A stretch of 64,000 bases of DNA from Catajapyx aquilonaris (taxonomy: Eukaryota), in assembly GCA_000934665.2 (NCBI GenBank), contig JYFJ02000553.1, positions 1-64,000 on the forward strand, in the 5' to 3' direction. The notes beneath the pieces were generated by a model. It had not been told where the DNA came from and searched no databases. It saw nothing but the letters and a program-made list of their open reading frames with translations. The position numbers and the translations under genes were made by a program. Below are positions 7,654-38,516 of the stretch, in pieces (within the stretch, counting starts at the first letter, position 1; every line of letters begins with the position of its first letter).

Positions 7654-9269
7654 AACGCGGCACGAACTCACACACGCACACACTCCCGGCATACGATGAA
7701 GACTCATGTGTTGCGTGTGTGGCATGAACCCGAGTCAAATAGATGTGGCTGTGAATCACATTTGACACATGCTTGTCCAAAAACTTACATTTGACGGCCG
7801 ATTTGAAAAACACGGCTGTGTGAACTTGTCTAGCCGCAAAAAAAAAAATGCATGACAATGAGGAAGGACTTGACCCAAAATGCTGCAGCCTTATCACATA
7901 TAGAGTCGCCTTTTTAAGAGACACAATAACAAGTTTGACTGAATTGACCATGGCTTTACATGCACATCTACTCATCCCAGGACAGCAACTTGCTTTTAAA
8001 GCAGCCCTGGCATAACATCAGGGATCCGGATGACCATGCCACTGCAGTGCATCATCAGCAGGCCAGGGCCAATGCAGTATGTGGGCCGAATGTGGGGCCT
8101 TGCACGCAGTCTGACACCCGTTCCAACACTTCAAGTTATTTGTGAGCCATCTGTGGTCATGCATTACTCCTGCTCAGCTGCCAAATAATGCTGGGAGTGC
8201 TCTCCCATCACAAGTGAAGCAGTGGTCAGATGGCTGGCAAGCAGCCAGGCAATGCACCTTGGGGCGGCTCTCCATGCAAGCACAGGGCATCACTCACCTC
8301 GGCCAACAATTTTGACTGAATTGGACGCACCACTTGAAACAGATCGAAAAATTATGATGCCAGACATTTGCTGTTAATTTCACAACCTTTAATACCTTTA
8401 ACACCACCACTACAGATGATAGAAAATTCAGTCACATTTCACCAATTCTTCACTTGTGAGAAATGAAATTGATAGAAATACAGGTCACCACAGAATTTGC
8501 CCAACTCTACAGTTGAAAATTTATAACAATAAGTAAACTATGAAGCACATGTTAGCACTACTGTCACCTTGACCAAACATATAACCGGGTTTGACTTCGT
8601 TCATATTACATCTCCCTTGCTCAGTTGATAACACCATGGACACTGTTAGCCTACATAAGTTCAAGAAAATTTACACTAATAAAGTATTGCACTAATAACA
8701 TTGATAACTGTAGCCCATAAAATGTGATATTACACAGTCTCATACACGTCACAAGACTGTGTTAGATGAGTATGGATACCTCCTTACACAAAGAGAGAAT
8801 AAAACCTTACATGGGGTCAACTTTCCCAATGGAGTAGGCCAAACAGTAGATAACTGGGATAAAGTCAATCTTAGAATTTGGACATAAATTTACATCATTA
8901 ATTTACATTTTATGGAAGACCACTTCCCTACATCAGGAATATTTTTGATGCACTCAGCCACTAGCATTTTCATAGATTTAGTTTACCATCACATGTTATG
9001 GATCCTGCCAGACCTCGTATGTCAAAAACAATTCACTCCAGTCCATCATCCATAAAACCAATAAAACAACACATTTATTACAGTAATCACAAAATGAGCA
9101 GCGCGCATAGCCTCTCATCACTTCCACCCATAAACATGAATGTTCATTAGTGATCCACGTAATGGCTGTCAACATTGGTCCTTGCAGTTCTCCATGCAGA
9201 CACAATTTTTGTGTGTGAACAATTATTAACAAGAAAGGACAAAAGTAGTGCATTACAAAAGTGATGCAC

Positions 9270-11210
9270 TTATGACAACTCTTCAGTATGTGACTTCTTA
9301 TGCTTTGCCAATTTATTTTGTGTTGAAAACGATATAGAACAAACCTCGCAAGTGAAGGAGTTGTGAGTCCTCTTGTGCACTACTAATGAAAAGCGTGCAG
9401 TGAACGACCTGTTGCAAACTTCACATGTGAATGGTTTTTCACCAGTATGTATTCTCCTGTGAGCAACTAATGAGGAACGAACGGTAAACGACTTTGGACA
9501 GATGTCGCAAGCAAAAGGTTTCTCACCACTATGTAATCGCTTGTGCTCCATTAACTTGTCAGGACCTGACAATATCTTATGGCAAGTTTCACACATGAAG
9601 GGATTGTCACCATGCGCTTTCTTGTGCTTGGCAAGTTGGTCACCGGCAGTAAACGACTTATCACAAATATCACAAGTGAATGGCTTTTCGCCTGAATGCA
9701 ACTGCTTGTGCCTAATCAGTGCCTCCAGTTTAGAATACGAATTCTGGCAGATTTCGCATATGAAAGGCTTCTCTCCTGTGTGAGTCCTTGTGTGTACAAC
9801 TAATGAATAATGTGCTGCAAATGACTTACTGCAAAGTTTACATGCATAAGGTTTTTCACCGGTATGTATCCTTCTGTGTGCAACTAATGACGTACGGACA
9901 GTAAATGCTTTCTGGCAGATGTCACAAGTGAAGGGTGTGTCACCGGTATGAATTCTCATATGTTCAATTAATTTACCATTAATCGAGAATGACTTCTGAC
10001 AAAAGTCACAAGTGTAAGGCTTCTCACCAGTATGTATTCGCCTGTGCTTGACCAGTTTATAATTAGCAACAAACGATTTCTCACAGATGTCACAAGTGAA
10101 GGGCTTTTCACCTGAATGCAATCTCTTGTGCTGAACCAGTGCACCGAGCCTAGTGTACGATTTTTGGCAGACTTCACAAGTGTAAGGCCTCTCACCAGTG
10201 TGTGTCCGCATGTGGTATATCAGTGTACTGTTGTTAAGAAATGACTTTTGGCACATGTCACAGGTAAAAGGAGTCTCACCTGTATGCAACCTCATATGCT
10301 TCATTAACCTGGCATGAGCCAAAAATGCTTTCTGGCAAATATCACACTCGTAAGGCTTATCACTAGTATGTACCAGCTTATGCCGCGTCAGATGGTTACT
10401 AGCAGAAAATGATTTTGGGCAAAGGTCACAATTAAAAGGCTTTTCACCAGTATGCACCTTCTTGTGCTTCACCAAAGCATCAAGAGTGGGATAAGTCTTC
10501 CGACACACCTCGCAAGCATATGGCCTCTGGCCGCTATGCCTCTTCATATGGTCTTTTAGCGTGTTGTTATGAGAAAACGATTTTTGGCAGATGTTGCAAG
10601 TGAAAGGCCTCTCACCTGTATGTACTCTTCTGTGCACGGCTAACTGACTGGGGGCAGAAAATGTTTTGAGGCAGTATTCGCAGGAGTAATTCCCACCAGA
10701 ATGGGTCTGCATGTGCTCTGAGTAGCTATCATGATCATGGAATGACCTCGAACACACCTGGCATGTCAAAGACTCAGAATCTGAATCACTGCTCGCCTGT
10801 TGCTGCACATTCTCCTCTTCGTTGTGACCACTGACCCCAGAATTAACTTCAAGAGAGTCCTCCCCCTCAGCTCCTTCCTCCTCTTCTTCTTCATCATCAT
10901 CCTCATCTTCATCATCCATATCTTCCATATCAGGGAGCTCCACTTTTATGATCATCTCTTCAACCGCTGCCTTATCTTCTGATGATGGAAGCTGCTCTTC
11001 TTCTGACACCTTCTCTGTCTCTACAGTGATCTCTCTTGCCTCTTCTTCTGACAACTCTACCTCTTCTGCAGACCCTCTTGTCTCATCTTCTGACACCTCA
11101 GACTCTTCTGGAGTCTCACTTGCTTCTTCTTCTGACATCTCGCTCTCTTCTGTGGTGCCCTTAGCCGCTTCTTCTCCCTCCATTTCTTCCTTCTCTTCCA
11201 CCAAAGACAT
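9270..11210 (-). CDS. C2H2 zinc-finger protein, 646 aa, acidic N-terminus plus 18 tandem fingers, single coding exon
   Basis: 18 CxxC...HxxxH fingers with TGEKPF-type linkers. A splice acceptor (ttttctctttaaccag) lies 4 nt before the ATG. AATAAA on the minus strand at ~9074-9079. Confidence 0.95.
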   Translation of the reverse strand: MSLVEEKEEMEGEEAAKGTTEESEMSEEEASETPEESEVSEDETRGSAEEVELSEEEAREITVETEKVSEEEQLPSSEDKAAVEEMIIKVELPDMEDMDDEDEDDDEEEEEEGAEGEDSLEVNSGVSGHNEEENVQQQASSDSDSESLTCQVCSRSFHDHDSYSEHMQTHSGGNYSCEYCLKTFSAPSQLAVHRRVHTGERPFTCNICQKSFSHNNTLKDHMKRHSGQRPYACEVCRKTYPTLDALVKHKKVHTGEKPFNCDLCPKSFSASNHLTRHKLVHTSDKPYECDICQKAFLAHARLMKHMRLHTGETPFTCDMCQKSFLNNSTLIYHMRTHTGERPYTCEVCQKSYTRLGALVQHKRLHSGEKPFTCDICEKSFVANYKLVKHRRIHTGEKPYTCDFCQKSFSINGKLIEHMRIHTGDTPFTCDICQKAFTVRTSLVAHRRIHTGEKPYACKLCSKSFAAHYSLVVHTRTHTGEKPFICEICQNSYSKLEALIRHKQLHSGEKPFTCDICDKSFTAGDQLAKHKKAHGDNPFMCETCHKILSGPDKLMEHKRLHSGEKPFACDICPKSFTVRSSLVAHRRIHTGEKPFTCEVCNRSFTARFSLVVHKRTHNSFTCEVCSISFSTQNKLAKHKKSHTEELS

Positions 11211-11350
11211 GGTCCTGGTTAAAGAGAAAAACCAGTCAGAATCAATTAAATTGCAATGTATTCAGATAACGACTTCTCATTTTTTTTTGTATCTGTACTG
11301 ACCCAGGAGCACAACTGAATAAAAATACCAATTAACATAATGATTTAATT

Positions 11351-11640
11351 CAGTAGAACCCCAACATTATCTGTCACCCACAGGACTGGGGCATTGTCGG
11401 ATAACAGAAAAGGTCGGATAATCCTAGGAACAAAGGAAAATACAACAAAGAGCATAAAAAACACTGAAATAAAGTACAATATTATGCTTTTTTAAGAAAT
11501 AGTGAATAATTTAACTTTTATATGCACACTCTGCTGTTTAAAATATAACGAAGGCAATACAAAACAAATGATTAGTACATTACAGTATTTGATGAGAAAA
11601 CATTAATTTATTGCCGGAGCGGGACCGGCCTTTCGAGTCT
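11351..11640. mobile_element. MITE copy (pogo-like CAGT terminus), right end degenerate
   Basis: Begins CAGTAGAACCCC..ATTATCTGTCACC and is colinearly similar to 15654-15977 over ~280 bp. Confidence 0.7.
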
Positions 11641-12549
11641 GTTATAACCGAAAGTCAGTTATGGCTGAAGCTGTTATAATTATGGTACTTGTCCAATTAC
11701 CATTATTATTTCTTTCATGAGCAAGGAATTATGTGAGGAGTTCAGGTATTTGTCAGCACTGACGCATCAATATTCTATTCTAACTTTAAATTTTATGATA
11801 TTGTTCTCATAATGTAAAGTACATTTCAACATTCTGCTACATACTTCTGATTGCTCACCTTCCCAAAGCTACCTGGCATCTCCATTACACACTTTTAAAA
11901 AGGCAACACATCCGTGAGGACTTGCTAAATAAAAGGCTGGCATTTCTGGCAATTGCGCAGATTGACAAAACCAGAATGTCTGGCCAGAAAGAACACTTCC
12001 ACACCACACTTTTGTGAACGATGCAAACACATCTGATCAAAATGACCCTTTTTACGCAGGCTTACTGTATGTGCTTTCCAGACATCATTGCGCAGGCAGC
12101 TATTGACAAGCACGCAATGACTTACACACTGCTACATGCTCTGTGTTACCAGACGTTACCGTAAACTACAAACTGGGTGTACAGGAAAGAGCGACCACGA
12201 CACCAAACCACCGGTTGTTACTAGTAGCAACCGAATTCCAAACATGGCCCAAACTAATAAAATTCTGGGTTCTGTTCCTTTCAGGGGGCCAATACGGCAA
12301 CAGAATCAATTCGACAACTATAGCTCCGTAATCCGACAGGTCCAATGCGCAACTATTGCCTGCACAACCTGCACACTTACGCTGCATTGCGCTGCAGGCC
12401 AATGGCAACATATTAATGCGACACCAACATGTATTCGCAAAGCACAGTGCACCAGTTCACCTAGACTCCTTACTCTCAGCTCATTCCATTCTATTTTTAT
12501 TTTTTTTTGGTCCTTGTCGAACACAGATCCTGGCTGCACCCCAGCTCAC

Positions 12550-12760
12550 GTCCGCCTCAGTTTGAAGGGATTCGGTCCCCGCATCCCATCAGCCTTCAGG
12601 CCATCCCAAGTTCACCAGGAATCCTTCAGAATTCGGGCAGGAAAAGGGTCTGAATTCTTCGTTCTACTTTTTTTTTTTTCTCTCTCTTTCTCTCCCATCG
12701 AATAATGGCTGCCGTTCTGGGCGCGTTCGGACCGATGCACACTTGATGACGCGTCACCGA
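12550..12760 (-). promoter_or_regulatory. Candidate promoter and non-coding first exon of the zinc-finger gene
   Basis: CpG-richer patch, palindrome TGACGCGTCA at ~12747-12756, YY1-like GCCATT, and a candidate donor GAC|GTGAGC at 12550/12549 that could join the acceptor at 11215. Confidence 0.35.
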
Positions 12761-13312
12761 ATAGACTCTATCGAATAAACAAAAAGGATTTAATTAATAT
12801 TAATTGACACAGGATTTATCAGGAAAATTAATATTTAGTCCTGGCAGACTTACCAGTCGATTCTTTTTAATCATCTTTCCTACAATGCAAGTTGGCGCCA
12901 ATTTTGAATCGTGGAGGGAGAAAATGTGTTTCTAAAAAAATCTATAATATTAAAATCCTTGTAGTGTTTAAAATATTGGAATGCTTCGTGTGTGCAGTAA
13001 AAACAGGATGGGGGTCATGCATGTTAAACCATCACTTCTCCCGGTGCATGCCGACTGAAATTTTATTAATGTAGAAATAATTGTTAAATGCATGGTACAC
13101 AGTACCTCTTTTACACACTCCGGTCACATTTAAAAAATGAGGAGATACATGTCAAATACTCATAAATATAATGTAAATGTTCAAAACCTCAGAGAGACAC
13201 TTGACTCGTATTGAATGACACAAAAATGCTGGATCACACAAAAATCAATTTGTTAACTCGGAACAACATGCTGCTGAGTAATACACTGAAAAAAAAAAGT
13301 TGACATAATGAG

Positions 13313-14929
13313 TCACTTATGAGTTTCCTTGGCTTTGCTTTTCTTACTTTCAGCAAGGTTGCGCCACTGTGTAAATAGAATAACGTCGTCAGGAGTTGCC
13401 TCCTCTTGCTGTGCGATGTAAGCCAGTGCTGCTTCAAGGGCCTTCAGTCCTTCGCTATGATTAATTCTCTTCACATTGTCTCTTCGCACCTCTTCACCGC
13501 AAACCATTCTCTTCCCATTTTCATTCGTCTCTTTGTCTTGTCCCAGTCCAACATCTGCATCATCTTCGTTGACACTCCGATTCACTAGAGCTATAATGTC
13601 AAGATCAGTCAGCTCTTGTTTCTTGTCTTTCTCCATCCACTCCTGTATATCACGAACACTCACATTCTCACAGCCTAGAACTTGTTGTAACAAAAGTAGC
13701 AGGTTATCACAATTTTCTCGCGCTATATCCAGAACAACTGTGCCGTCCAAAAGTAAAGGTCTCCATGATCTTGCCAATACACGTGGTTCAATCCTCTCCC
13801 ACGACTGAGCAATCCAGAAAAAAATTTCCCTTAGGCTCACATTCCTCAGCTTGCCCAGTATACCACATACAAAGTCTCTTTCCTGAACAAGAGCAGTTAA
13901 AAGCTTATGACGATACTTGATCTTCAATGTTTCAACCACATCCCGGTCCATGCGACAACATGCGGCGACATTCGAAGGAATAAGCATAATTCGAATGTTC
14001 CTGCTACACAGTAAGCCCTCCTCAGGAAGATACGATGCATTTTCAAGGAGAAGAATTGCATTCCGTGGTAGACTAAGAGATCTCAAAAAGTGTGTTACTG
14101 AAGGTACAAATTCCATGAAGAACCATCTTTGGAAAATTTGTCGATCTACGCAGCCATCCTTCTGGTACTGATATGAAACTGGCAAAGTAGGATTTAGGGT
14201 TTCCAAAGCCTCTTGACATTTGTCCTTTCCAATTAATGTCAGTTTCAGTTGGTGGCTACCATTAGCATTACTGCAGCCTAGAATTGTCACTCTTTCCTTC
14301 CCCTGATGATAATCAAGAGGCAAAGTCTGGGCCTGATATCGTAATATTGCTGAAGGCAACACTTTACAATTCAAGCCTGTCTCATAGAAAGCGTACAGCT
14401 GGTCAGAAGACAGCCCTTCCTCTATGACGTAGCTACGCAATTTACTTTTAAATTTCACAAATTCTTCACAGTTTTGTGACAGCTTTTCACTGGAGATATT
14501 GAGCTGCCTTATGCCGTATCGTTTTTTCCAGCCATCAAGCCAGCCTACACTGGCTGTGAAATAAGACTCCCCTTCATTAAGTTCCTTTTGGAAAAACAGG
14601 GCTTTCTCTTGCAGTATTTTGTCTGTGAGAAGAGTGCCCTTATTCCTCTGCTGTGTGTACCACAAGTACAGACCCTCACTCACCTTCTCATATTCACACC
14701 TCTTTGTCTTTCTGTCCTTCAGTCCTTCATTTGAATCCCGCTCAATGCACCCCTTCTCCAAGTCACCTTTTCGCTTCTTCCAATCACTAATTGTGACTTG
14801 CCCCACACCTAAGTCGGTTGCTACGTTTCTCAAGCTCTCTCCTTTGTCAAGTCTCTTTAAGGCTTCACATTTTTGTTGAATTGAAAGAATCATTTTCTTT
14901 CTCTTTTTATCTGCTATGTTCTCGCTAGA
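13313..14929 (-). CDS. Tigger/Jerky-like transposase-derived coding exon (538 codons, uninterrupted)
   Basis: pogo-family motifs are present but the catalytic residues are altered: NxDETG becomes AFYETG, LLLDN becomes LLLEN, QPMDQG becomes CRMDRD. No flanking TIRs were seen. Confidence 0.92.
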   Translation of the reverse strand, partial: SSENIADKKRKKMILSIQQKCEALKRLDKGESLRNVATDLGVGQVTISDWKKRKGDLEKGCIERDSNEGLKDRKTKRCEYEKVSEGLYLWYTQQRNKGTLLTDKILQEKALFFQKELNEGESYFTASVGWLDGWKKRYGIRQLNISSEKLSQNCEEFVKFKSKLRSYVIEEGLSSDQLYAFYETGLNCKVLPSAILRYQAQTLPLDYHQGKERVTILGCSNANGSHQLKLTLIGKDKCQEALETLNPTLPVSYQYQKDGCVDRQIFQRWFFMEFVPSVTHFLRSLSLPRNAILLLENASYLPEEGLLCSRNIRIMLIPSNVAACCRMDRDVVETLKIKYRHKLLTALVQERDFVCGILGKLRNVSLREIFFWIAQSWERIEPRVLARSWRPLLLDGTVVLDIARENCDNLLLLLQQVLGCENVSVRDIQEWMEKDKKQELTDLDIIALVNRSVNEDDADVGLGQDKETNENGKRMVCGEEVRRDNVKRINHSEGLKALEAALAYIAQQEEATPDDVILFTQWRNLAESKKSKAKETHK

Positions 14930-17900
14930 CTGTAAAGAGAAAATACAATTAGAAAGGAAAGCAATCACAGTTCTGACCAATGCAGCACATGGATTATTCA
15001 CGCGTAAAAATGAATGAATGAAGCTATGCTGATAACTCTCACACAGCCCTCATGACTGGCCACTGACGGAAGGAATTATAGTTTCCACTTGATATTCAGT
15101 ACTTCTGTCATTGTGCTCACGACTGTACCACTAGCACCCAGCTGAGACTAATGGCATTGTAAAAATTATTTCCTCACTTTACATTTCAATTGAACCACCA
15201 ATACATCTTCAATCTAGCTTTTACAAGCAGACACATGAGATATAATTTAGTTAGTGTTTTTTATAGGAACAGCATAGATTCCTATTGTAACCACTACAAT
15301 CAATCAACAAATGTTACAAGTCTCAAGCTTCAAGTCACGTATTGCGACTTTCGATTTGCATTGCCCTTAATCAGAAAGTACGTCTCCTCAGGAGCTCCTG
15401 GTCTCCTACGTTTGTGGCCAACTGGGAGTAACTTGCAAATTATTTCAAACATGACACTAGTGTGATGATAATTGAAGCCATCCTTACATTCACAGCAACA
15501 TTATATCATGTGGCTATCATGTGTGATATGGAGTTGTCCAACGAGGAAGGTCCACTGCTTACAGAAATTATGTTACGAAGATACGGGGAACTCATCGCAA
15601 TCTTTGTCTGACTTAATCGTTTTGTGTGATGTCACTGCTGTTGGTGCAAAATACAGTTGAATCCCGATTATCTGTCACCAACGGGACTGGGGCATTGTCA
15701 GATAACCGAAAAGGTCAGATAATCCGAGAAGTAAAGAACTTCAATAAAACACAACAAAACATAAAAACACGAAATAACATTCAATATTATGGTGCTATAA
15801 GAAATAGTGAAGTATTTATCTTATACACACTCTACTGTACAGTATTTACAATTTAACTATGGCAGAATAAATAAATGTGTAGAAAACATTACAGTATTTC
15901 ATGAAAAAAAAAAATGATTTATTGCCAGAGCGGGACGGTCTGATAAATCGAGGAGTCGGATAATCGAGGTTCTAATGCAGCTCCTATTGTGTGCACAACT
16001 GCTGTGTGCTGATAAATCAGGAAGATGCAGTGAGAGAATACGGGCTTAACCAGTTGGAAATAATGAAAACCCTGAAACCTGAAATTCAAATATTATTAAT
16101 TTGAGAGGGGAGAGGGATAAGGGTGCTGGAAAAACTGTCACACCACCCAACAGAACAGGCCAATGCAGAAAGCAGGGGGAAAAAACTACTTCAAAATTGT
16201 CTTCCCCTTACAAAATTTCAGGTGTTAAAGTCCAACTGCAAGTTTCTGTTCAATAAAATATTTTCTACTACTACAAAATATCTCTTCCACTGTATTTGAA
16301 CTTTAAAATCTGCAATGTACAAGTAATCACTTCTATAATAATAAAGAGATAAATCTGTCCATCTCTCCTAATCAAACAGCAAGGTTGTCATCTTCATTTT
16401 CCTTGTTATCATCCGAGTCACTTCCTCCCCGGGCTCCAGTGTTTCTGCATCTCCTGTCATTCCTGCCAATGACCTTGTGGCAATACTCCTTTGCCTGCAT
16501 CCAAAGCTCAATTGGATTCAGGTGGCAGTGGTACGTCGACAGGCGAACAACCCCGCCGTGGCCATGCTGCTGCAGGTACTCATCGACAATGTAGCTCTTG
16601 AACGTCAACTTGTTCACCCCCACCAGAGCTACCAGTTGCTTTTTAAAATCAGCATCGTTGAAGATGCCGTGTGATGATACCCTAAGTGTCATGTTGGTAA
16701 TGTGGCTCGGCTCAAGCAGGTGCAGTCATCCGTCTACTTTCAATCACTATAGATCCAACTGCTTCAAAACTATTCGCAGGCTGCTCAAGCCTCCATTAAA
16801 TCCTACTTTCTGGGCACGCAGCTCATTGAGGATTTCCTTCCCGGTGGGCTGATGGCCCCTCGACATCATCTCCTGCACAATCCTCCTTATGGCAGACTTG
16901 GTGAGGTCATCTAGCGCCGTGACTGGTGCAGCCCTATTTCGCTTCTTACCAGGAGTTTTGAGTGGCTCTCCTCTCTCTGCCTTACTTGAGATCCTGCTCA
17001 GCGTGGAAAGAGAAATCTGGAAAGTAACACTGAGAATTATTCTCCTGCCCACATGTTACATACATGCGCAACCAACTACTATGTCGCAGAGAAGGGCATC
17101 AGAAATTTCATCAATATTTTTTGTCCATCATGGTCTCTAGTTCAGCAGAACTGTCTGCCACTGCACCAAGGTAAAAGTTTTGGGTCCGAAATAATTTTAC
17201 TATGCTGTTCAAGTTTCATGACATATTGCAAATTATCACAGCTGTTATTATGTGAAATATGCAGACATTACTTAAGAAGAGAGGAACTGAGAGAGACTCA
17301 CATAAATAATGTACGTAACACAATTATCACTCACCTTAAGTATGGCAGCAGCTCGTTCATTGACGGACTCAAAGGGAATGATGGGGCCTTTGAGGTCCCT
17401 CTCAGCCTTGCAGAACTCGAGGGCCGCCACAACCATCTGCTGGGCTTGGCTATTAAGGGCTTTTCCCTGAAACGCCATTATCACAACCAGTCGAAAAGAT
17501 CATACCAACACAACCACAAGCAGACAAGAAAGTAAAGAAAGGAAAGGGTATGGAAGGGAAAACGCAGTATATCCAAAGCAATTCCTTCTCTCTGTGTGCA
17601 TATGCCGAGGAGACAGGTAAGTTGGTACGTGATCAACGATTACGTCAGACAAAGGCTGAGTTCCCTTTAGGCAAGAGGCAGAAACACCTGTTTCGCCTGG
17701 TTCACTAAGATTTTTGGAGCAACTGATGCTTGACAGTGTGTACCAGAAAAGTGAAAGCTAGTAGTGCAAATCCGAGTTGTATAGTTCAAAAGTCTGGGTC
17801 AATGCCACGTGCATTTGAAACTGGAAAAAACTTATACGAATATGAGGATGGCTTCAACTATAAAACTGAAGCTCTAAATTTCCCAATCATTTTGTATGTG

Positions 17901-18405
17901 CATAAACAACTTATAAAAACGACAGGCTTTTGGCCCATGGAGCCCGCGAAAGGCCTTTTCCCATATTGTGCGCACTAAATTGACTGGAAATTAAAATGAT
18001 CTGTGGCAAAATTCACCCAAGCGCTTCTCTGCCGCATGTGCCTGTGCATGTTGACAGAGGCTGTCACCATCACTAACAAATGTCCCTGAAACGCACCTGG
18101 CCTATGAAAGACTCTTCCCCTGAGTCACTGCTCGTCTCCTGCTGCACATTCTCTTCCTTTGTGTCCACAAAAGCTCCAGATTCATCTCCACGAGTGTCCG
18201 CCACTGCCTGCTTAGGGTCATCTGGTTCCTCCATTTTCACAGCCACCATTTCAAACGCCGGGGATTCTTCTTCAGGGGGTTCCTCCTTCACCTGAGTCAT
18301 CCACGTCTCCTCCGTGGTTATCTCCTCTTCCTCCTCCTTCACCTCAGTCTTCACCTCTGCGGTTATGTCCTCGTCCACCTCCGTCTTCACTGTCACCAAT
18401 GACAT
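13313..18405 (-). CDS. Chimeric gene: zinc-finger-paralog acidic N-terminal exon fused to a domesticated pogo/Tigger (Jerky/CENP-B-like) transposase, ~641 aa
   Basis: Exon A 18405-18097 (309 nt, donor CAG|GTGCGT, phase 0) joins exon B 14929-13313 (acceptor ttttctctttacag, phase 0) in frame. Exon B encodes two CENP-B-type HTH regions (KRKKMILSIQQK..., LYLWY...FTASVGWLDGWKKRYGI) and a DDE_1-like domain. AATAAA on the minus strand at ~13062-13067. Confidence 0.8.
15654..15977. mobile_element. MITE with ~20-bp imperfect TIRs (pogo-like)
   Basis: TA|CAGTTGAATCCCGATTATC ... GATAATCGAGGTTCTAATG. A second copy is at 11351. Confidence 0.75.
16372..17478 (-). mobile_element. Internally deleted IS630/Tc1-superfamily transposase remnant containing a spliceosomal intron
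   Basis: Exon 17478-17335 (…ERAAAILK|GTGAGT) joins an acceptor at 17016 (ISLSTLSRI…) in phase 0. The C-terminal fragment YIVDE..HGH.VVRLSTYHCHLNPIELW resembles the LPPYHCELNPIE motif. The middle of the gene is missing. Confidence 0.75.
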
Positions 18406-18697
18406 GGCTGTAAGTGGTAAGATAAGCAAGTTAGAGCCAACCTGTACCTTGCAAAGTGTGCATTAAAGATCGGTACACCACCAGACCTCCTCCGATCCGA
18501 TTCAGCCGGACGTCTCAGAAGAAACGAGGAAATGGAAATTCGGGAAAGCTCAACAGCCCAAGTGTGGCAGCCATGTTGGGTGCGTTCGAACCTATGACGC
18601 CTCTGTAGGCGAGATTCCGTAACCCACACCGTTTGGCTCAGGGTCGGAAGGTCGGTCGGTCGTGCCGGTCCGCCGGTCGTGCGGCCGTGAACCAATA

Positions 18698-18731
18698 GTG
18701 TGGCTCCCGGAATATATTCCGGAAGCCACAC
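18698..18731. repeat. 34-bp near-perfect palindrome in the CpG-rich region upstream of the chimeric gene
   Basis: GTGTGGCTCCCGGAATATATTCCGGAAGCCACAC, with one mismatched pair. Confidence 0.85.
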
Positions 18732-19468
18732 CACCTGGCTTGAGGTCGCACTCGCACGGCCCGTGTGTCGCGGTTTCAGTATAATATAGGCCAAAGAAAC
18801 TTCACATTTTCGCCCGGACATTACAAAATGAGCCGAAATATGTAATACAAAACGACGCTGCAAAAGTGCATCAGGCTTGCAGGAACATGATAGTCTACAG
18901 TTCACATGAACAGGGTGACTATGAGAGTGACAGTGTAACTAACGGAGAAGCAACTTCACATTTTCCCCAATATATGGCATTCAGACAATTTATTTAACGT
19001 GGCCATCGGGGTCAATGCTGTCAATAAGGGTGACAGTTTATGTTGTTGTTGTCGTCATTGTTGTATAGACTGCTTCACTGGCAGCCTTCACTGCTGGCCA
19101 GCATACTTTGATTTAACCACGAGCTAATTGATTTAACTCAACCTGTACATATCTGAATAGCACGTGACGCTAAAATTCTGCAATGAACAATAAGTTTCCG
19201 CTATACCCTCCTGAGACCCGAGAAGCCACTTGTGCAATTATTTAGTAATACTTTGGAAGAACCCTGTGTAGTGGAGGTGTAGAAGCCATTTTTCAGAATT
19301 TCATATTTTTGTTGCAATCACTTATTGCAAAATTAAATGTCCAATATATACGACATTGGGTCTTAGCTATAACATTCCTTCTCTATATTTTTCAATGAAT
19401 TTAGAAAAAAAACCTTTACAGCAGTCTGTATCTTACGTTTTCCTTGTACAGTATAGGGCTCCATACTA

Positions 19469-20199
19469 CTGGGTGTCCCACTACTTCCCGAACCGGCAAA
19501 ATGCCGCATAACTGGTAAACCACTTCATGTAGGGCGATGAAATTTTACGGGGACATAGCTTGATCCATGAGAAAAACTGGCTGCAGGTGAGTGCTTAGCG
19601 GAATAAGGCGCAAGCATGTACCGCTACACTCTGGAAGAGCGCGTGTTTCTGGTGCGCACGTACTGGAGAACCCAGTCATTCAAGCAGTGTCAAGTGGAAT
19701 TCGTGAAGGAGTTTGGTGGACGGAAGCCTCCGGTCAAATCGTGTATCCATGATTTGGCTACTTTCAGCAGGACGGAGCAACATGCCACACATCGAGGGTC
19801 AGCATGGCCGTCATCAATTCCTTCATCCCAGGCCGAGTCATTTCCAAGGGGATTTGGCCACGACGATCACCCGATTTAACTCCACCGGATTATTTCCTGT
19901 GGGGTTACCTAAAAGGACAGGTCCACAAAACAAACCAAGAACTATCCCAGCACTGCAGGAAAATATCCGTTCCGCAATTGAAGGGATAACTCCCGAGATG
20001 CTGGCCTGCACTTTCGCGAACATGGAGCGTCGTGTTCAGTCCTGCTTGGACACAAATGGGGGCCATTTTCAGCATCTTCTATGACAATATGTTACTGTCA
20101 CAGACCAAGGTATGTACCCGTAAAATTTCATCGCCCTACATCAAGTGGTTTACCAGTTATGCACCATTTTCCCGGTTCGGGAGGTAGTGGGACACCCTG
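19469..20199 (+). mobile_element. Non-autonomous Tc1/mariner-superfamily element (DUF4817-type), internally deleted
   Basis: ~89-bp TIRs (19469-19557 and 20111-20199) flanked by TA on both sides. The N-terminal HTH fragment (MYRYTLEERVFLV…) abuts the catalytic C-terminus FQQDGATCH…WPRRSPDLTPPDYFLWG…GGHFQHLL, with frameshifts. Confidence 0.93.
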
Positions 20200-20479
20200 T
20201 AGATGTTACATTTGCCGAGTGTCCCCTGTAGGGGACGGCCCTTTTCTTACAATCTAGCATTCCATAATTTTTTTATCATTCTTGTTGTGTTTTGGGGACT
20301 ATTATGAACTAATAAAAAAAAAACAATAAACAACAAAATTTGAACAAAAAATCTTTCAGGCATATCTGGGTTAAATAGGATTATTGTTGGCACAAAAATG
20401 AAGAGAGAGGATGCCAATGCACAATAAATTTCGAGTACCCCCAACATTGAGGTGTCTAAGATCTTTTGGTTGTAAATTG

Positions 20480-22453
20480 AGCAAAAAGTGATGTTCATTG
20501 AACAGGATTTGCTTCTGGCTCTCCCACTTGTTCATGAGTGTGGGATATATGTAATCTTTCTGGACATTGTAGAAGTGGGTCTCGCTCAGATGGGGATGGC
20601 CATATCTTCCAGTAGCTCATGCATCCTGGTGTATGCAAGACGACGATGCAGGTGGGTAGGAGTATGTTCCCCAAGGCTGGAGAACGTCCACCGGAGAGTG
20701 TCTGGTCACTCTCCCAATTGACTTATGCCAAGCTTATGCCCATTCATGCATTCCATGCTGACTCTCACCATGCTACCCTGTGTGGCTTGGCTCTTTTCCT
20801 GGACAGGTTCGCCACAGCGGAGGCACTTCAAGAATAACTGTCCTAGTTGTTCTTCATGAACAAGATGATAGGGACCCTTATTGCAGCTGAACTGTTTTGT
20901 CGACGTTTCAGATATTGAGTCCAGATCTATTATCAGAATAACTAGACTCATTCGGTATTTGATAATATGATTCCTCATACGGTGCAGAATGACTCAATGG
21001 CGTGAGGCTGACATCGAGAGTACACTCTGTGGGTGAGGTCAGGGAAAAGGTTCACTTCGGTATTTGCCCACACCATTATAGTAACAATGTCATACAGGGA
21101 CTACTGTCAAGCTATTATGTCATGAGGTGCAAATAATTAATGGTGAACTACAGAGAGAAAATCACACAGGGTTTTGTGGGATGGTATCAGTTTGCAAACT
21201 TATTATTGTTAGCTGTAATAGCAATACTCAGGCGTAAATGGACTTCTTGCAATGAACATTGGTACCGGTAGCTCACCTAGGTCAGGTGCTTTGTTGCGTT
21301 TCGGAGTTGATGTCAATGGCCCCTCTGCATCCTGAATGCCTGCACACGTTTGCACCTCTTTAGAGATGCAAAGAGGAGGACATTCTGTTTGACTGCTCTT
21401 GTTAACTGCCTCCTTTCTGTCATTTAAGCACTGTGTGAATGCATTTTTCGTGGGCTTGATGTATAAATTGCATTGCACAGAAGCACGTCTGAACCTCGTT
21501 TCATCTCTTCTCATGTTCTGCAAGGTGAAGGAAATAACAATGCCAAAGCCTGGGGTGACAACATGGGTTCCTAGTCAGCAAAGGGTGAGCATGGGTTCCC
21601 TAGTCACCTCTGGTGATAGCCAATGTGAATGTCATGCATCAAATTGGATATATGTGACAGGGGTAGGTGTTATTGTTGTTGCAAGTACCCCATTCGCCTC
21701 GTACCTTATCATGCTTCTTCTACTGTACATTGACTGGCAATAATGGAAATAAACTAAGACACCTACCGGTGTGCAGGTAGACAGATCGTCACCTGAACCT
21801 GTTGCGGATGGTGTGAAAGATGTGCTCTGTGGAGAACAAATGGTGCACTTAGATATGACATGTTCCAAATGTGAACTTGCCTGGTCGTGAAAGCACCTAC
21901 CTGTGTGCAGGTTGACAGATCGTCACCTGAACCTGATGCGGATGGTGTGAAAGATGTGCTCTGTGGAGAACAAATGGTGCACTTAGATATGACATGTTCC
22001 AAATGTGAACTCGCCTGGTCGTGAAAGCACCTACCGGTGTGCAGGTTGACAGATCATCACCTGAACCTGCTGCGGATGGTGTGAAAGATGTGCTCTGAGG
22101 AGAACAAATGGTGCACTTAGATATGACACGTTCCAAATGTGAACTGGCCTGGCCGTGAAAGCACCTACTGGCAGTATTGGGACAGCGTTGGCCTTTAGAA
22201 GCCGCCTCATCTGCCCTGGTCGACGAGGAAATATTCCCTGCTTGTCAAAGTGTTCCATACACACCCTATGTCTTGGCTGGGGTGCATGAGTTGCCGGTAA
22301 ATTCAGCGATGCTAGCCATGCTTGCATCAAATCCGGATTGCCTCTGGGAAACGTGAAGAAACTGATGCCGTCGCCTATTCTCCGTCGGCGACGACATACA
22401 ACGCAAAAATCACTCGTGCAATCTCCACTACCAGGTGCTTCTTGCTCCGCCAT
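20480..22453 (-). mobile_element. Truncated THAP-domain transposase gene (Kolobok-like), multi-exon and degenerate
   Basis: THAP domain (CVVC..FFTFP..W..RVCMEHF..LKANAVP) at 22453-22169. Downstream fragments include LVHEEQLGQLFLKCLRCG…CMNGH, ALGNILL and LSETHFYNVQKDYIYPTLMNKWE, with frameshifts. The DDE core is not visible. The Kolobok assignment is from motif recall. Confidence 0.65.
21767..22168 (-). repeat. Three tandem 134-bp repeats, each a 74-nt intron plus a 60-nt in-frame mini-exon
   Basis: Units are 22168-22035, 22034-21901 and 21900-21767. Each starts GTAGGT, and a CAG acceptor precedes STSFTPSAxGSGDDLSTCT(P/Q). Confidence 0.92.
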
Positions 22454-24557
22454 GATTATCAGGCTGTCAGTCAGCTCCAGCCGTTCACATGATCGTACAT
22501 GATACAGCGACCATGATACATGCTTCATTGGCGGCCATTTTGACGGCCGCATTCGGATGGCTGCAAAATCAGTTACTTCAGGTCTTCACCACCAGATGCC
22601 TCAAGAGTTTGCCACTCCCCTACCGTATCCAACCTACCGTCCCAATAGTCACCAGAGATCACAATAGTGATTCTGCTAAATCACAAGGTTCACATGGACT
22701 AGTAATAATCAGATTCATTACAATATGAAATAGGATCTATTTTATTTGCACTTTCTCCTCTGATTTCAACAGTGTACGACACATCTGAATAAATTACCTC
22801 ACCATAGTAGAGCATGGGGACACTGTGTTCTTTTTTTTTTATATAAGTTTTCTTTTTTAGCTTTTAACTACAACTCTCTATACAACAATGTACAAAATAC
22901 CATGGCCTGCAAATCAAACCATTGTTTTTTTTTTCCTGAACATAATTCGTCGTTCACTTGCGTCAGTCATGTAACAAGTACATGCCACCAAAAACAGAGA
23001 AAAAGAAAAGTTCCGTCGTTTCAATCTTTCCTGGGGTGAGTGTTAAATTGTAGGGCGGGACACACTACCCAATACATACTTATATAAAGGTACTTATACC
23101 GTATATATCTATATGCATATTATTACAACACTAACAGACATAATCTCAGGACATCAAACAGGTTGAGGGGAGGATATTAAAAAATTGGGGAACAAACACA
23201 ACAAACAATATAAAAGGGTGGTGAACTGTCTATAAAATTAGGTGACTTAGTAACAAAAAAAAAAGAGAGAGAGAGAGATAATAAATGAGAGAAAAGAAGG
23301 AAGCCTTGGTCATTTGTACCATGACAGTTCTTTTTTCGACCACTGAATAAAGTGGAGGAAAAAAAATCACACGTTAATCGCTTCTTTTTTTCCCCACTCT
23401 CAGCAGTGCCTGAAGTGAGCCAGAGTTATGCTCCGATTCCCCATGTCCCTGCAAACATTACGTATTGCACCCGCAAAAGTTCAAGAATCCAAAACACACC
23501 CGTGAATACAAGACGATGTATAGTAAGTACCCTTCTGAAATTGTTAACCTAACCCCGCATTCTCACCAACCCTCGATAGAGACTTGTTAAATATATTTTT
23601 AAGAGGTATAAAATACACAAATTAATTAAAAATCTTTGGTTTACTCTCACTTCAAGCACTGGCATGACCCATCGGTACCAGTAACAAACCCAAAACATTC
23701 ATTACGTCTGGGATTATTCACACTTCGCCTACTCTTTTTTTGATCTACACTGAATGAAAAATAATAATACACCGGCTCGTGCCGCACTTCTTTCGCGTCA
23801 CGGCATGATTGATCCAAAAGCCTCTTTTTTGTACAGATATTTTGCAGTCAAATTTAAATGTGAATCTGGCCTCTAAATTTTCACGATCGATTTGGATTGG
23901 TCATTGTGAACACAATCTAATTCAAACTAATGTATCAAAAAGGTATGAAAAAACCAGTAGTTGAAACCCTGACAACTGTCCATACTATTGAAGACAAGAA
24001 ATTTTCAAGGTCTATCGACTGGGCATCTAAGACCTAATGAGTAAAATCACACAACCAACGCAGCAATCGGGAGATTGAAACTGTAGCCGCAGAGTCAAAA
24101 ATCACAATGCGAGAAGCACTTGCTTAAGAAAATGAAGTGTTGGGGGGACGGCATTGAGTCAGAAACGAAGCAAAGAGAACCCAAAAAAGTCCTCCAAGTT
24201 TACAAAAATAGTGTTGACTTTACAACAATGCCTACCTCTCTTTTCTGCACGTGCGTGTATATCTCCAACCCGATATGATCCCATGATTGTTGTTACGTTA
24301 TTTCTTTTTGATCTCTACTGTACTGCACAATTTTTGAAATGGGCAAATACTTAAAAAACTGGCCTAGAAAATTTGCTCCGAAAGTTTTTGTCATGTTGTT
24401 TTTTCCTGAGGGATGGAAGATATCAACCAACCTTTAATACGTCTCCCAGTTTCTTGAGCCAGGTTGGGGGGGTATGTTGGGGGAGGGCAAGTTAAAATAC
24501 TGGTAGTGAAGAAATTCAAGACAGTTGGCAAAACAAATAAAAAGATGGCCACAGAAA

Positions 24558-34895: not shown

Positions 34896-36830
34896 TCAGA
34901 TAAATCTAGCAGCGATGACGATGATCAGCATAGAGAAGAAGGTCGCGGCCTGACCCGTGGCAGCGTTTGACCCCAAGTCTGCGACCACGCGACAGGGAGC
35001 GCCTGTACCAATCTTGAGCTTCATTGGAAGGACATAAATCTGTGCTCCTGAGGCTGGGACTTTGTCCATGTTGGCCACATTCTCCAGGTTGTAGATGTTG
35101 CTCTTGCTCAGGGAGAAGTGGGCCTTGTTTCCTGTCGAGCCTCCAGAATCGACCGACGGAGAATCGATCCCAACACCTACAATCTTACTGGTCTTGCGGA
35201 TCCAGTCGGCTGCTTTTACATCCACACCTACACATGAATGAATTATTACGAATGAATGATTACGTGCTGAAACACTGCAATTTTAATAATAAATTCTCAT
35301 TAGATGAACCAAGGCAGTTGAAACGATGGAAGTGTCGTAGGCTGAGTCTGCAGCATATGCTAGTATAATGCATTGTTATTACTTATAATGCTAATTATCT
35401 TAGTAAATGCGGCTGCGGTGACCAAATGACACTTCTACATAAAATGAGGAGGAGTTCACACTAAAAGTTGCCAGCTCTTATGGAGTGTGAGGCCATGCAC
35501 TGCATGGCTGCAAATTCTTGGCAGGGGCTCAGACATTAACCCCTGTTAAGAATCTACCCACTGCATGTCCTACCCATTCAGGACAATGAGTAACACTGAA
35601 AGTCTGCAAGCACATGCAGATTCCCTTGAAACCTGATAGCTGAAGAAAACAAATGTGTGGACATTCTGATGTTAACTGAAGCTATACATATACTGTAACT
35701 TACTGTACGTTAAAAACAATGTCTACATGCAATTTCTGCTGCATTACATCACCAGATGGTCCTGTCTACAACACTATCAAAACTTGAAAATTTCCATTTT
35801 TTTGCTATGTAACCATAGGATTTAATAATTACCACTTACCTTGTAAACACAAAATAGCTACTCATAGTAAACAGATCTACTCGTCAACTACTGATGCATA
35901 ACAGTAATACTATGCTTATCATTAGACCATCTCATGACCTCACCACTATCACATGTAGCTTATTATGCAATAAGTTCTGAGTTAATTGATTTCCAGCCCC
36001 AACAAATTTATCCCAAATATTATGAGAAAACCAATTGTCTTTAAGGTCGAACCTGGGAAGTGGTAGAGACTTGTGTCGAGGCTACCATCTCCAAAGTACT
36101 TTGCCCTGTCATTCCAGTACTGCCCCCAGCCGGAGTACACCAGAAGGATTGACCCTTCCGGAATTGGACCATGCTCCTGCTCCCAATTCTCAAGATCTTC
36201 AATTTCCAGCAGAGCGTCCCTGTTCTTCTTCGCCTTTTCACTGATGTCCACCCTGACTCCCGGGCCAAACAGCCTTTCAAATGGGATATCAGCCACTTTC
36301 CAGCCGTTCTCATTAAAATGGAATGGTGCGTCCATGTGAGTACCACTGTGCTCTGCTATGCAGAAGTCCTGAGCTGCAATCCTAACATGAAATGCAATTT
36401 GGTTTAATTCATGTTTCTGTAACACGATCTTAAAAAATTATGTCATAACTATCATAAGTCATGTCGTTGATGATTTGTAATAATTTGTAATAAGCCATGA
36501 ATAGGTCACGTACAGCCCTAATGCCCCTCTCAAGCTATAATAAGTACTGAAACCAACGGTACGTAAAATAAATTGCAATGCCAAAGAAATAATAATAGTA
36601 ATACCCATTATACTGTGCATGTATAGCAAGCCAAATGGAGAGGAAATGCCACTCAATTATGTAAAGTATCACTACCTGGATCCATTTGGGTATCGTGTAG
36701 TCCTATCATTATATGTGAGCACCTTTCCTCCAGGCCACATGTTTGTACTCTCGTCATAAGAGTAGCTCATGTCCACCCGAGCTCCATTCCCAAAAAGGGG
36801 CAGGAGGAACAACACTAAAAGCCGGTCCAT
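34896..36830 (-). CDS. Cyclase-family hydrolase, paralog 2, 271 aa
   Basis: Exons 36830-36676, 36381-36053 and 35227-34896. Motifs: EHSGTHMDAPFH, GVGIDSPSVD. Signal peptide MDRLLVLFLLPLFGNG and a hydrophobic tail. Confidence 0.92.
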
Positions 36831-37406
36831 TTTTTGAGCACTTCTGGTCACCAGGAAAGCCAGAACCCAGAGTAAGCCTCTTCTTATCCTTGGATGAGGG
36901 TCAGGGACAAAAAAAAAAGGCGACTCTTATGCAAGAATGTGGAATGAGGGTGGGGTCTGCTTCTATAATTACACCCTCAGGCTGAAAGATGAGACATCCT
37001 CAAGGCCTCTTAGCATGTTGAACCTGGTCACATGGCATTTATGTGTAAACTGGTTGCAATAATTCACTTGTAAGAGAACAAAGGTCACATGTCATCACTA
37101 TCATAATTTTTATTCACTCAGCTTTTGCAGCAATAGACACAAGTAGTAAAAGAATAGTTTTATATAGAATGTAGTGATGCGTAACATTATCAAAAAGGCA
37201 ATATGCTCTTACTGTTAGTGCTTTTGCACCCAGTGGCAACAAAAGCAAGAATCACGGACAGGCAAAGATTAAAAGACTTCATGAAAAAATTCAATATATC
37301 GCAGCAGGTACATCAATCGATAAGTCAAACCATGTTAGTTTGAAGACATTTCAAAAAGACACACAATAACCAAGATATTCCTATTCCATCATATCAATGC
37401 ATTAAT

Positions 37407-38516
37407 TCAGACTAGATAGGCAATGACCATGACAGCAACCATGTATGTCCAAGCTTTAGCCTGACCCACAGGAGCAGCACCGCTTGTGTCCAATTCTGCA
37501 AATACACGGCAAGGAGCTCCGGTTCCACGCATCAGCTTCACAGGCATGACTGTAATCTTAGCTCCTGTTGCAGGTATCTTGTCCACATTGGCAACATTCT
37601 CCAGGTTGTAAATGTTAGCGTCACTCATAATCAAGTGGGCTCGGTAATCAGTCGTAGGTCCAATGTCAACCGAGGGTGTGTCGATTCCAACGCCCACGAT
37701 CTTCTTGGTTGCGACAATCCATTCGGCAGCTTTTCCATCTACACCTACATAATTGAATGAAGCTTTTAGGGCACACAATTTGCACATTAAACGCATGATC
37801 ATACCTGGGAAATGGAAGAGACTCGAATCGGTACCAGGATAACCAAAGTATGCTGTCTTGTTACCCCAGTTTTTTCCCCAGCCAGAGTACACTAGTAGGA
37901 TGGACCCTTCTGGAATTGGCCCATGATCCTGCTCCCAATTCTCCAGATCCTCAATTTGCAGCATGGCATCCCTGTTCTTTAACGCCTTGTGACTGATATC
38001 CACCCTGACGCCTGGGCCAAACAGTCTCTCAAACGGGATCTCACCTGCTTTCCAGCCATTCTCGCTGAAGTGGAACGGTGCATCCAAGTGCGTACCACCA
38101 TGCTCACCCATGCAGAAGTCATTTGACATAACTCTGAAATGCAAAAAGGGCAAGTGTCACATATAACGCCAATTGTGGTCAATGGTAATTTAATGAAACA
38201 TTTAACAGCTCTGCAAATAATATTTCCAGTTCATAAGTACCTGCTGTGCAACAAGAATTGTCGCAGCGGCAGCGCACAAACTACAGTCTCTCGTGTCCCT
38301 GTGCTCGTAGATTGTAGTTTGTGCGCTGCCGCTGCGACAATTCTTGTTGGACTGATAGTACCTGTTTCCATTTGGTAAGGGCTTCCTGTGTTCCGAGTAT
38401 TCCAGAACCTTCTGTCCAGGCCACATAAGCGTCTTGTCATTATACGGATAGCTCATGTCCACAAGAACTGCATTTCCAAAAATCGGGAGTAAGGCGAGAA
38501 CCAAAAACCACCACAT
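37407..38516 (-). CDS. Cyclase-family hydrolase, paralog 3, 273 aa
   Basis: Exons 38516-38362, 38133-37805 and 37744-37407. Motifs: EHGGTHLDAPFH, GVGIDTPSVD. Signal peptide and hydrophobic tail. Intron phases match paralogs 1 and 2. Confidence 0.92.
38240..38358. mobile_element. TA-flanked fold-back mini-element inserted into a splice donor
   Basis: Perfect 37-bp inverted repeat (38249-38285 and 38313-38349), with TA at 38238-39 and 38359-60. Confidence 0.8.

Follow-up and report, generated by a model that had tools for sequence, protein, structure and literature searches.

Within the first 64,000 nucleotides (nt) of contig JYFJ02000553.1 (assembly GCA_000934665.2; hereafter the window), the minus strand carries a coding exon derived from a Tigger/pogo transposase and, 3.2 kb upstream of it, a short acidic coding exon related to the neighboring C2H2 zinc-finger (ZNF) gene. 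The acidic exon and the Tigger exon are both transcribed, and the locus is probably a host-transposase fusion or, failing that, a domesticated pogo gene. Judged by splice motifs, reading phase and conservation, we put the chances at about even that the two exons are joined by an 18097>14929 splice to encode a fusion protein.

The Tigger-derived coding exon occupies positions 13313–14929 (stop codon at 13313–13315) and reads uninterrupted for 538 codons from 14929 to 13316, within a stop-to-stop open reading frame (ORF) of 578 codons (13313–15049, minus strand). Its product belongs with the pogo/Tigger transposase-derived proteins, as judged by three Pfam domains that all exceed their gathering cut-offs: CENP-B_N (residues 9–57, E 3.4e-08, 33.4 bits against a cut-off of 21.2), HTH_Tnp_Tc5 (residues 80–141, E 3.2e-16, 59.5 bits against 22.2) and DDE_1 (residues 211–389, E 8.8e-26, 91 bits against 22). 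A word-indexed protein search returned 63 homologues with E values down to 1e-148. The best of these with near-full coverage (Logan contigs, Pelodiscus) are 48–52% identical, shorter ones reach 54%, and the named ones, which come from reptiles, a scorpion and insects, are called “jerky protein homolog-like”. The homologues are stand-alone and about 500–540 residues long. We aligned the Tigger protein with 14 of the 63 homologues, picked by us among the top, named and distant matches, and a profile of this alignment matches the solved CENP-B DNA-binding domain (1HLV) over profile positions 7–135 (E 1.7e-24). An earlier note on this DNA had claimed an uninterrupted 538-codon Tigger ORF with a DNA-binding region of the CENP-B helix-turn-helix (HTH) type, and the reading frame, the domain matches and the 1HLV profile match agree with it on both counts. 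In an exact look-up in the protein collection, the Tigger protein started at Met13, the ZNF protein and the 109-residue acidic ORF were all absent.

The Tigger ORF lacks the intact DDD triad of an active Tigger/pogo transposon. In the three columns that we take to be the catalytic triad of the family, D1 is replaced by Tyr182 and D2 by Glu296, where Asp is found in 14 of 14 aligned homologues at both columns; D3 is retained (D328), and next to it the codon for a Pro shared by 14 of 14 homologues has been deleted. When columns are counted as conserved if at least 12 of the 14 homologues agree, the Tigger protein departs from the family at 38 of 131 columns and close family members at 1–9 of about 120, although part of these departures may reflect phylogenetic distance because three distant homologues also depart often (31–63 columns). 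The departures are unevenly distributed: conserved columns are retained in CENP-B_N (8/8), HTH_Tnp_Tc5 (20/24) and the C-terminus (7/8), with lower figures for residues 142–210 (12/20) and DDE_1 (45/69), and the DNA-binding part differs from the catalytic part in this respect (Fisher’s test, p 0.013). Since 4.9% of random substitutions in the ORF create a stop codon, the probability that no stop would have arisen is 0.019 for a neutral divergence of 5% and 3.6e-4 for one of 10%, with frameshifts uncounted.

Neither clear terminal inverted repeats (TIRs) nor a TA target duplication, the other marks of an active element, were found around the ORF. A search for flanking inverted repeats at seed 9 gave none, and at seed 7 the sole candidate matches at 15 of 17 positions (left arm 12959–12975, plus strand; right arm 15283–15299, minus strand). 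This pair is weak: a TA duplication is absent beside it, the outer dinucleotides being GA and GG, its sequence has no further occurrence in the window, and the probability of such a pair by chance is about 0.05 by our rough estimate. It may be a decayed TIR relic, in which case the arms would bound a 2341-bp element including both the splice acceptor and the AATAAA signal discussed below. No second copy of the Tigger ORF or its flanks is present in the window. In having a frame that is still open, a DNA-binding part that is conserved, an active site that is broken and no ends, the ORF matches the pattern described for JRK, TIGD, CENP-B and POGK, in which the DDE domain is kept and the triad is partly or wholly lost (PMC7386202). 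Based on these observations, the Tigger ORF has the look of a domesticated gene, not of a mobile or freely decaying copy, and domestication in one form or another, fused or stand-alone, is likely.

The presumed parent of the acidic exon lies downstream on the same strand. It is a C2H2 zinc-finger gene with a single coding exon (9270–11214, minus strand) that encodes 646 residues from an ATG at 11210 (coding 9273–11210). The earlier note had likewise placed the parent gene next door. The acidic exon protein aligns with the N-terminus of the ZNF protein by BLASTP (29/92 identities, E 1e-6) and by MAFFT (43% identity, with every gap a multiple of whole codons), and the DNA matches over 18090–18202 versus 10751–10863 (85/115, 74%, E 6e-14). 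The host part of the putative fusion is thereby derived from a host gene; the homology of exon 18405–18097 to the ZNF N-terminus, and a clear DNA identity at 18091–18168 versus 10752–10831, had both been claimed before and hold in these alignments.

The relationship continues past the end of the acidic exon, into the proposed intron, before it fades. We compared daughter and parent DNA in 100-nt blocks anchored at their common CAG|GTG, scoring each block against 300 shuffles. The last 100 nt of the acidic exon are 73% identical to the parent (z 12.7), nt 1–100 past the donor 58% (z 6.7) and nt 101–200 past the donor 53% (z 3.7), with 0 of 300 shuffles reaching the score in each block; for nt 201–300 past the donor the identity is 44% (z -0.6), a score that 218 of 300 shuffles reach. 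Alignment past the donor requires indels of 1, 3, 2 and 2 nt. In the first finger the two Cys codons are now Gly and Arg, and a tblastn search with the ZNF protein recovers the remnant at 33% identity over 33 residues with a stop in the translation (HAQAHAAEKRLGEFCHRSF*). What is left of the first one or two C2H2 fingers (17885–18096, minus strand) thus carries a stop and frame-breaking indels, and the duplicate has no intact C2H2 finger. The loss of the finger array from a ZNF duplicate, which the earlier note had proposed as the source of the upstream exon, is borne out by this frameshifted remnant of about 200 nt. No homology was found between the 3′ flanks of the daughter and parent loci.

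The acidic exon (18097–18407, minus strand) starts at an ATG at 18405–18403 and runs for 103 codons to the donor CAG|GTGCGT. Its protein begins with MSLV, contains 25 Glu and 8 Asp (32% Glu+Asp), matches no Pfam family and is probably disordered; it may have an effector role. Read through the donor, the exon would alternatively be a small ORF of 112 residues with a stop at 18073–18075. Searches for relatives were negative. A word-indexed search of longer proteins gave 0 of 658 candidates at E <= 0.01, an ESM Atlas search gave no match at or above 0.9, and the sole match to a HMMER parent/daughter profile (E 5.5e-4) is a repetitive 971-residue protein that we rejected as unrelated by inspection. 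As 4.3% of substitutions in the exon create stops, the probability that it would have stayed open after neutral drift to d = 0.2 is 0.07. The ratio of nonsynonymous to synonymous substitutions (dN/dS, NG86) between the exon and the parent is 0.35 over the 103 codons (dS 1.5, saturated) and 0.34 over the last 30 codons (dS 0.8). We interpret these data as indicating that the ZNF duplication is old and its fingers dead, and that the acidic exon appears to have been retained as coding sequence; the low complexity of the region limits the argument for retention to moderate strength. Two contigs from the public run described below lie over the acidic exon, and one of them departs from the window at 18294–18297 by an inserted and a deleted nucleotide separated by 3 nt, which could represent an allele, a paralogue or an assembly error.

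The proposed intron of 3167 nt (14930–18096, minus strand) is delimited by splice motifs. Its donor, CAG|GTGCGT after 18097, is in phase 0 and matches the donor consensus MAG|GTRAGT at 8 of 9 positions. The acceptor consists of a pyrimidine tract and then a CAG whose last letter is 14930; a CTAAT lies some 20 nt upstream, and the exon starts at 14929, likewise in phase 0. Both sites are as good as RNA-confirmed sites nearby. An acceptor directly upstream of the transposase ORF and in frame with a host donor is therefore present as a sequence motif, and the phase-0 donor CAG|GTG and the matching phase-0 acceptor at 14930 are as the earlier note had described them. Among the donor candidates in the acidic exon, two match at 7 or more of 9 positions: the one after 18097, and CAG|GTGAAG at 18292 (7/9), also in phase 0, which with the same acceptor would give an in-frame N-terminus of 38 residues.

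The start of the Tigger exon is also informative. The column that holds the start Met in 4 of 14 homologues reads ATA (Ile5) here; in the other homologues the start is at most one column away. Reading from the upstream stop, the first ATG met in frame is that of Met13 (14893–14891). Upstream of Met13 the exon keeps the KRKK motif found in 9 of 14 homologues, and the CENP-B_N match begins at residue 9, which is profile position 1, so that the first four positions of the domain precede Met13. Taken together, the lost start, the lack of an ATG before Met13 and the kept KRKK and CENP-B_N start favor translation from upstream of the Tigger exon.

Transcript evidence comes from contigs of one public run (X1), compared with the window over 8800–24000 and treated as RNA-derived, 6 of the 8 listed joints being GT..AG on the minus strand. 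The joint 11213/11214>12473/12474 (CT..AC on the plus strand) defines a 1259-nt intron in the 5′ untranslated region (UTR) of the ZNF gene, within a contig that covers 9106–11213 and is spliced to about 12473. The joint 18407>18487 (CT..AC on the plus strand, GT..AG on the minus) defines a 79-nt intron at 18408–18486 with donor GAG|GTCTGG, which stops 2 nt short of the acidic exon’s ATG and is preceded by a 5′ non-coding exon of at least 18487–18584 (98 letters in the spliced contig). An acceptor just before the ATG of both genes, as noted earlier from the letters alone, is thus seen in spliced contigs. At the other end of the locus, contigs 13049–13797 and 13844–14079 match the window with 0 differing letters in the 3′ half of the Tigger ORF and on for 264 nt past its stop. 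The probable 3′ UTR (13049–13312, minus strand) contains an AATAAA at 13067–13062, and the contig end at 13049, 13 nt past this signal, fits a poly(A) site, although contigs cannot prove an RNA end.

Apart from the finger remnant, the proposed intron holds repeat sequence and ORF fragments. An interspersed repeat of about 290 nt at 15650–15936 is 75% identical to one at 11347–11625 in the 5′ UTR intron of the ZNF gene; other X1 cover in the proposed intron is due to this sharing, and loose ends of X1 contigs at the borders of the two copies suggest a transcribed repeat family. ORF fragments at 16372–17055 (minus strand) resemble by eye a Tc1/mariner transposase relic (...HCHLNPIE...); they have no Pfam match at E <= 0.01, none of three ORFs in the intron matches Pfam, and X1 contigs cover 16388–16972 of this segment with 0 differing letters.

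We propose the following model. An old duplicate of the neighboring C2H2 zinc-finger gene would have lost its finger array, and a Tigger/pogo copy 3.2 kb downstream on the same strand would have been immobilized and retained as a coding exon. The predicted transcript comprises the 5′ non-coding exon (at least 18584–18487), the acidic exon (18407–18097) and the Tigger exon (14929–13313), with a phase-0 joint 18097>14929 and an end past the AATAAA at 13067–13062. Its product would have 103 + 538 = 641 residues, namely an acidic N-terminus, a CENP-B-type paired HTH and a full-length, catalytically dead DDE domain, and would act as a sequence-specific DNA-binding factor rather than as a transposase. 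That a zinc-finger duplicate in a non-tetrapod animal swapped its C2H2 array for a captured, dead Tigger and so became a lineage-restricted transcription factor is a tentative reading, to which we give slightly less than an even chance. In the model both ORFs would also be under selection.

Several observations weigh against the fusion. Among the X1 joints and contig pieces listed, none joins 18097 to 14929 and none covers 14377–15390 or 17419–17925; the contig that enters the acidic exon apparently stops short of the donor, as judged by depth figures. The X1 contigs speak neither for nor against this joint. Pieces of the proposed intron (16388–16622 and 16638–16972) are also present in X1 contigs with 0 differing letters, which unspliced RNA, repeat-derived RNA or DNA carry-over may explain, and X1 itself is taken as RNA-like solely from the GT..AG ends of its joints. 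Phase compatibility alone is expected in 1 of 3 cases by chance. The dN/dS values of the acidic exon derive from a low-complexity alignment and saturated dS. The argument for selection draws on one sequence only, and the search that returned the 63 homologues gave no orthologue sharing the substitutions or the fusion. Finally, Met13 has an A at -3 (AAAATGA) and could start a stand-alone protein of 526 residues; it stands where homologues have Val, Ile, Leu or Thr, and could have arisen as a new start that makes up for the lost one. The less probable alternative to the fusion, yet one to be taken seriously, is a domesticated Tigger gene that stands alone in the manner of JRK/TIGD, with a non-coding 5′ exon and the Met13 start, the acidic exon being a transcribed pseudogene or a small ORF. 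Between the acceptor and Met13 no ATG occurs in any frame, the homologues are themselves unfused, and vertebrate pogo-derived genes are mostly described as complete transposases without added domains (PMC7386202). Because both ZNF-type genes carry a 5′ UTR intron that ends just before the ATG, an acceptor in front of a coding exon is not in itself a sign of fusion, and all the evidence for domestication counts equally for a stand-alone gene. Such a gene would, however, lose through its Met13 start the KRKK motif and the first four CENP-B_N positions, which are retained; no upstream exon or promoter other than those described here is known for it, and it leaves unexplained why the acidic exon has an open frame and whole-codon indels despite the decay of the fingers.

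The locus could also hold no functional gene, but a transcribed ZNF pseudogene remnant beside an inactive Tigger copy that is still without a stop, the splice motifs being coincidental. The unseen 18097>14929 junction, the intron pieces in X1 contigs and the frequency of transposable element remnants in the window (19607–19879, 19466–19565/20103–20202 and the weak 15/17 TIR candidate) would all fit. A neutral copy that lacks two catalytic Asp residues, a start codon, a Pro codon and 38 of 131 conserved residues should, however, carry stops or frameshifts (see the probabilities above), its departures should not cluster in the catalytic part, and a young copy would keep its TIRs and target duplication; we regard this explanation as unlikely. 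Less probable still is that the acidic exon serves as an alternative first coding exon of the ZNF gene through an 18097>11214 splice that skips the Tigger ORF. They share a strand, and the acceptor of the ZNF coding exon (11215/11214) is RNA-confirmed, but a 5′ exon at about 12473 already serves the ZNF gene and an AATAAA lies in between. We also rejected this splice on its reading frame: in phase 0 it would miss the frame of the ZNF ATG, and 17 codons on it would run into a stop.

The fusion model can be compared with known systems. Host-transposase fusions formed by splicing number at least 94 in tetrapods, where fusions such as KRABINER and other KRAB-transposase proteins (bioRxiv 10.1101/2020.05.07.082677) resemble the proposed product in joining a host N-terminus to a transposase DNA-binding domain, in a parental ZNF-family context. 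They differ from it in several ways: here the joint is predicted from motifs; the host part is acidic and without a known domain, rather than KRAB, SCAN or SET; the host is apparently a non-vertebrate animal; and the whole transposase, including the dead DDE domain, is kept while the DNA-binding array of the host copy is gone, which would make the event a swap and not an addition. Twelve pogo-derived vertebrate genes are described, of which CENPB, POGK and POGZ are the three chimeric ones (PMC7386202). POGK and POGZ likewise combine an entire pogo-type transposase (HTH_Tnp_Tc5 and DDE_1) with N-terminal parts from the KRAB/ZNF world, and the DDE triad of POGK is partly altered (DN35D), as it is here (PMC7386202). 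Unlike the Tigger ORF, which groups with “jerky homolog-like” proteins at 48–54% identity and has neither KRAB nor zinc fingers, they are reported as Passer-derived vertebrate genes (PMC7386202).

JRK, JRKL, TIGD2-7, CENP-B and Drosophila CAG, which are stand-alone domesticated pogo transposases, share with the Tigger ORF the plan of CENP-B_N, HTH_Tnp_Tc5 and DDE_1, a retained DDE domain with a partly or wholly lost triad and the lack of TIRs (PMC7386202, PMC4231638). The Tigger ORF is not orthologous to any of them, having no match above 54%, and whereas these genes are defined by cross-species conservation and Ka/Ks, it is known from one sequence. Among invertebrates, domestications of pogo or Tc1/mariner elements are reported in Drosophila and Lepidoptera (PMC4231638, PMC13548663). 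Two automatic predictions from Anolis, with the database-given name “jerky protein homolog-like”, belong to the same Tigger clade (43% identity) and have N-terminal additions joined just before KRKK: one of 825 residues (P0022) combines SCAN and Tigger, and one of 690 residues (P0009) combines an acidic N-terminus without a Pfam family with Tigger. Both differ from the present ORF in keeping D1 and D2, and the acidic exon protein (P0002) does not match the N-terminus of P0009 significantly (BLASTP best E 0.29). What seems particular to the locus is a host copy without its own DNA-binding array, the adjacent parent and a host that is seemingly not a tetrapod.

The surrounding window is gene-rich on the minus strand, with a THAP-domain exon, an SH2 tyrosine kinase, two tandem cyclase-family genes, a bZIP gene and a MUN-domain gene, and introns of 74–79 nt occur in it. 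The THAP-domain gene lies upstream at 21500–24000 (minus strand; ORF 22031–22585, Pfam E 2e-11) and contains three introns with RNA support, two of 74 nt and one of 249 nt; a pair of alternative joints around 21826–22170 suggests either a duplicated unit with the 74-nt intron or alternative splicing. The cyclase-family genes (35982–38156, minus strand) are of the cyclase/kynurenine formamidase type (isatin hydrolase-like, PF04199), with best matches at 42–45% identity in echinoderms, a hemichordate, a soft coral, decapods and others, a spread that speaks neither for nor against the arthropod host named in the earlier note. Between the THAP-domain gene and the acidic exon lies a short mariner-like relic (19466–20202), whose inverted 100-nt ends (19466–19565 versus 20202–20103) are 91% identical and enclose a piece of a DUF4817 helix-turn-helix ORF (19607–19879) and a DDE-like stretch (19753–19989). 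An Rfam search gave 0 matches.

The locus shows a parent gene, a decayed finger array and a captured transposase side by side. Domestication of pogo elements is documented in vertebrates and a few insects (PMC7386202, PMC4231638, PMC13548663), and if the fusion were not confirmed, the locus would come down to a domesticated Tigger gene, probably restricted to its lineage, and such a finding is of an ordinary kind. If the swap is true, the target sites of the factor would be relics of that Tigger family scattered through the genome. A confirmed fusion would be a clear example of a transcription factor exchanging its DNA-binding module, and would extend the mechanism beyond tetrapods.

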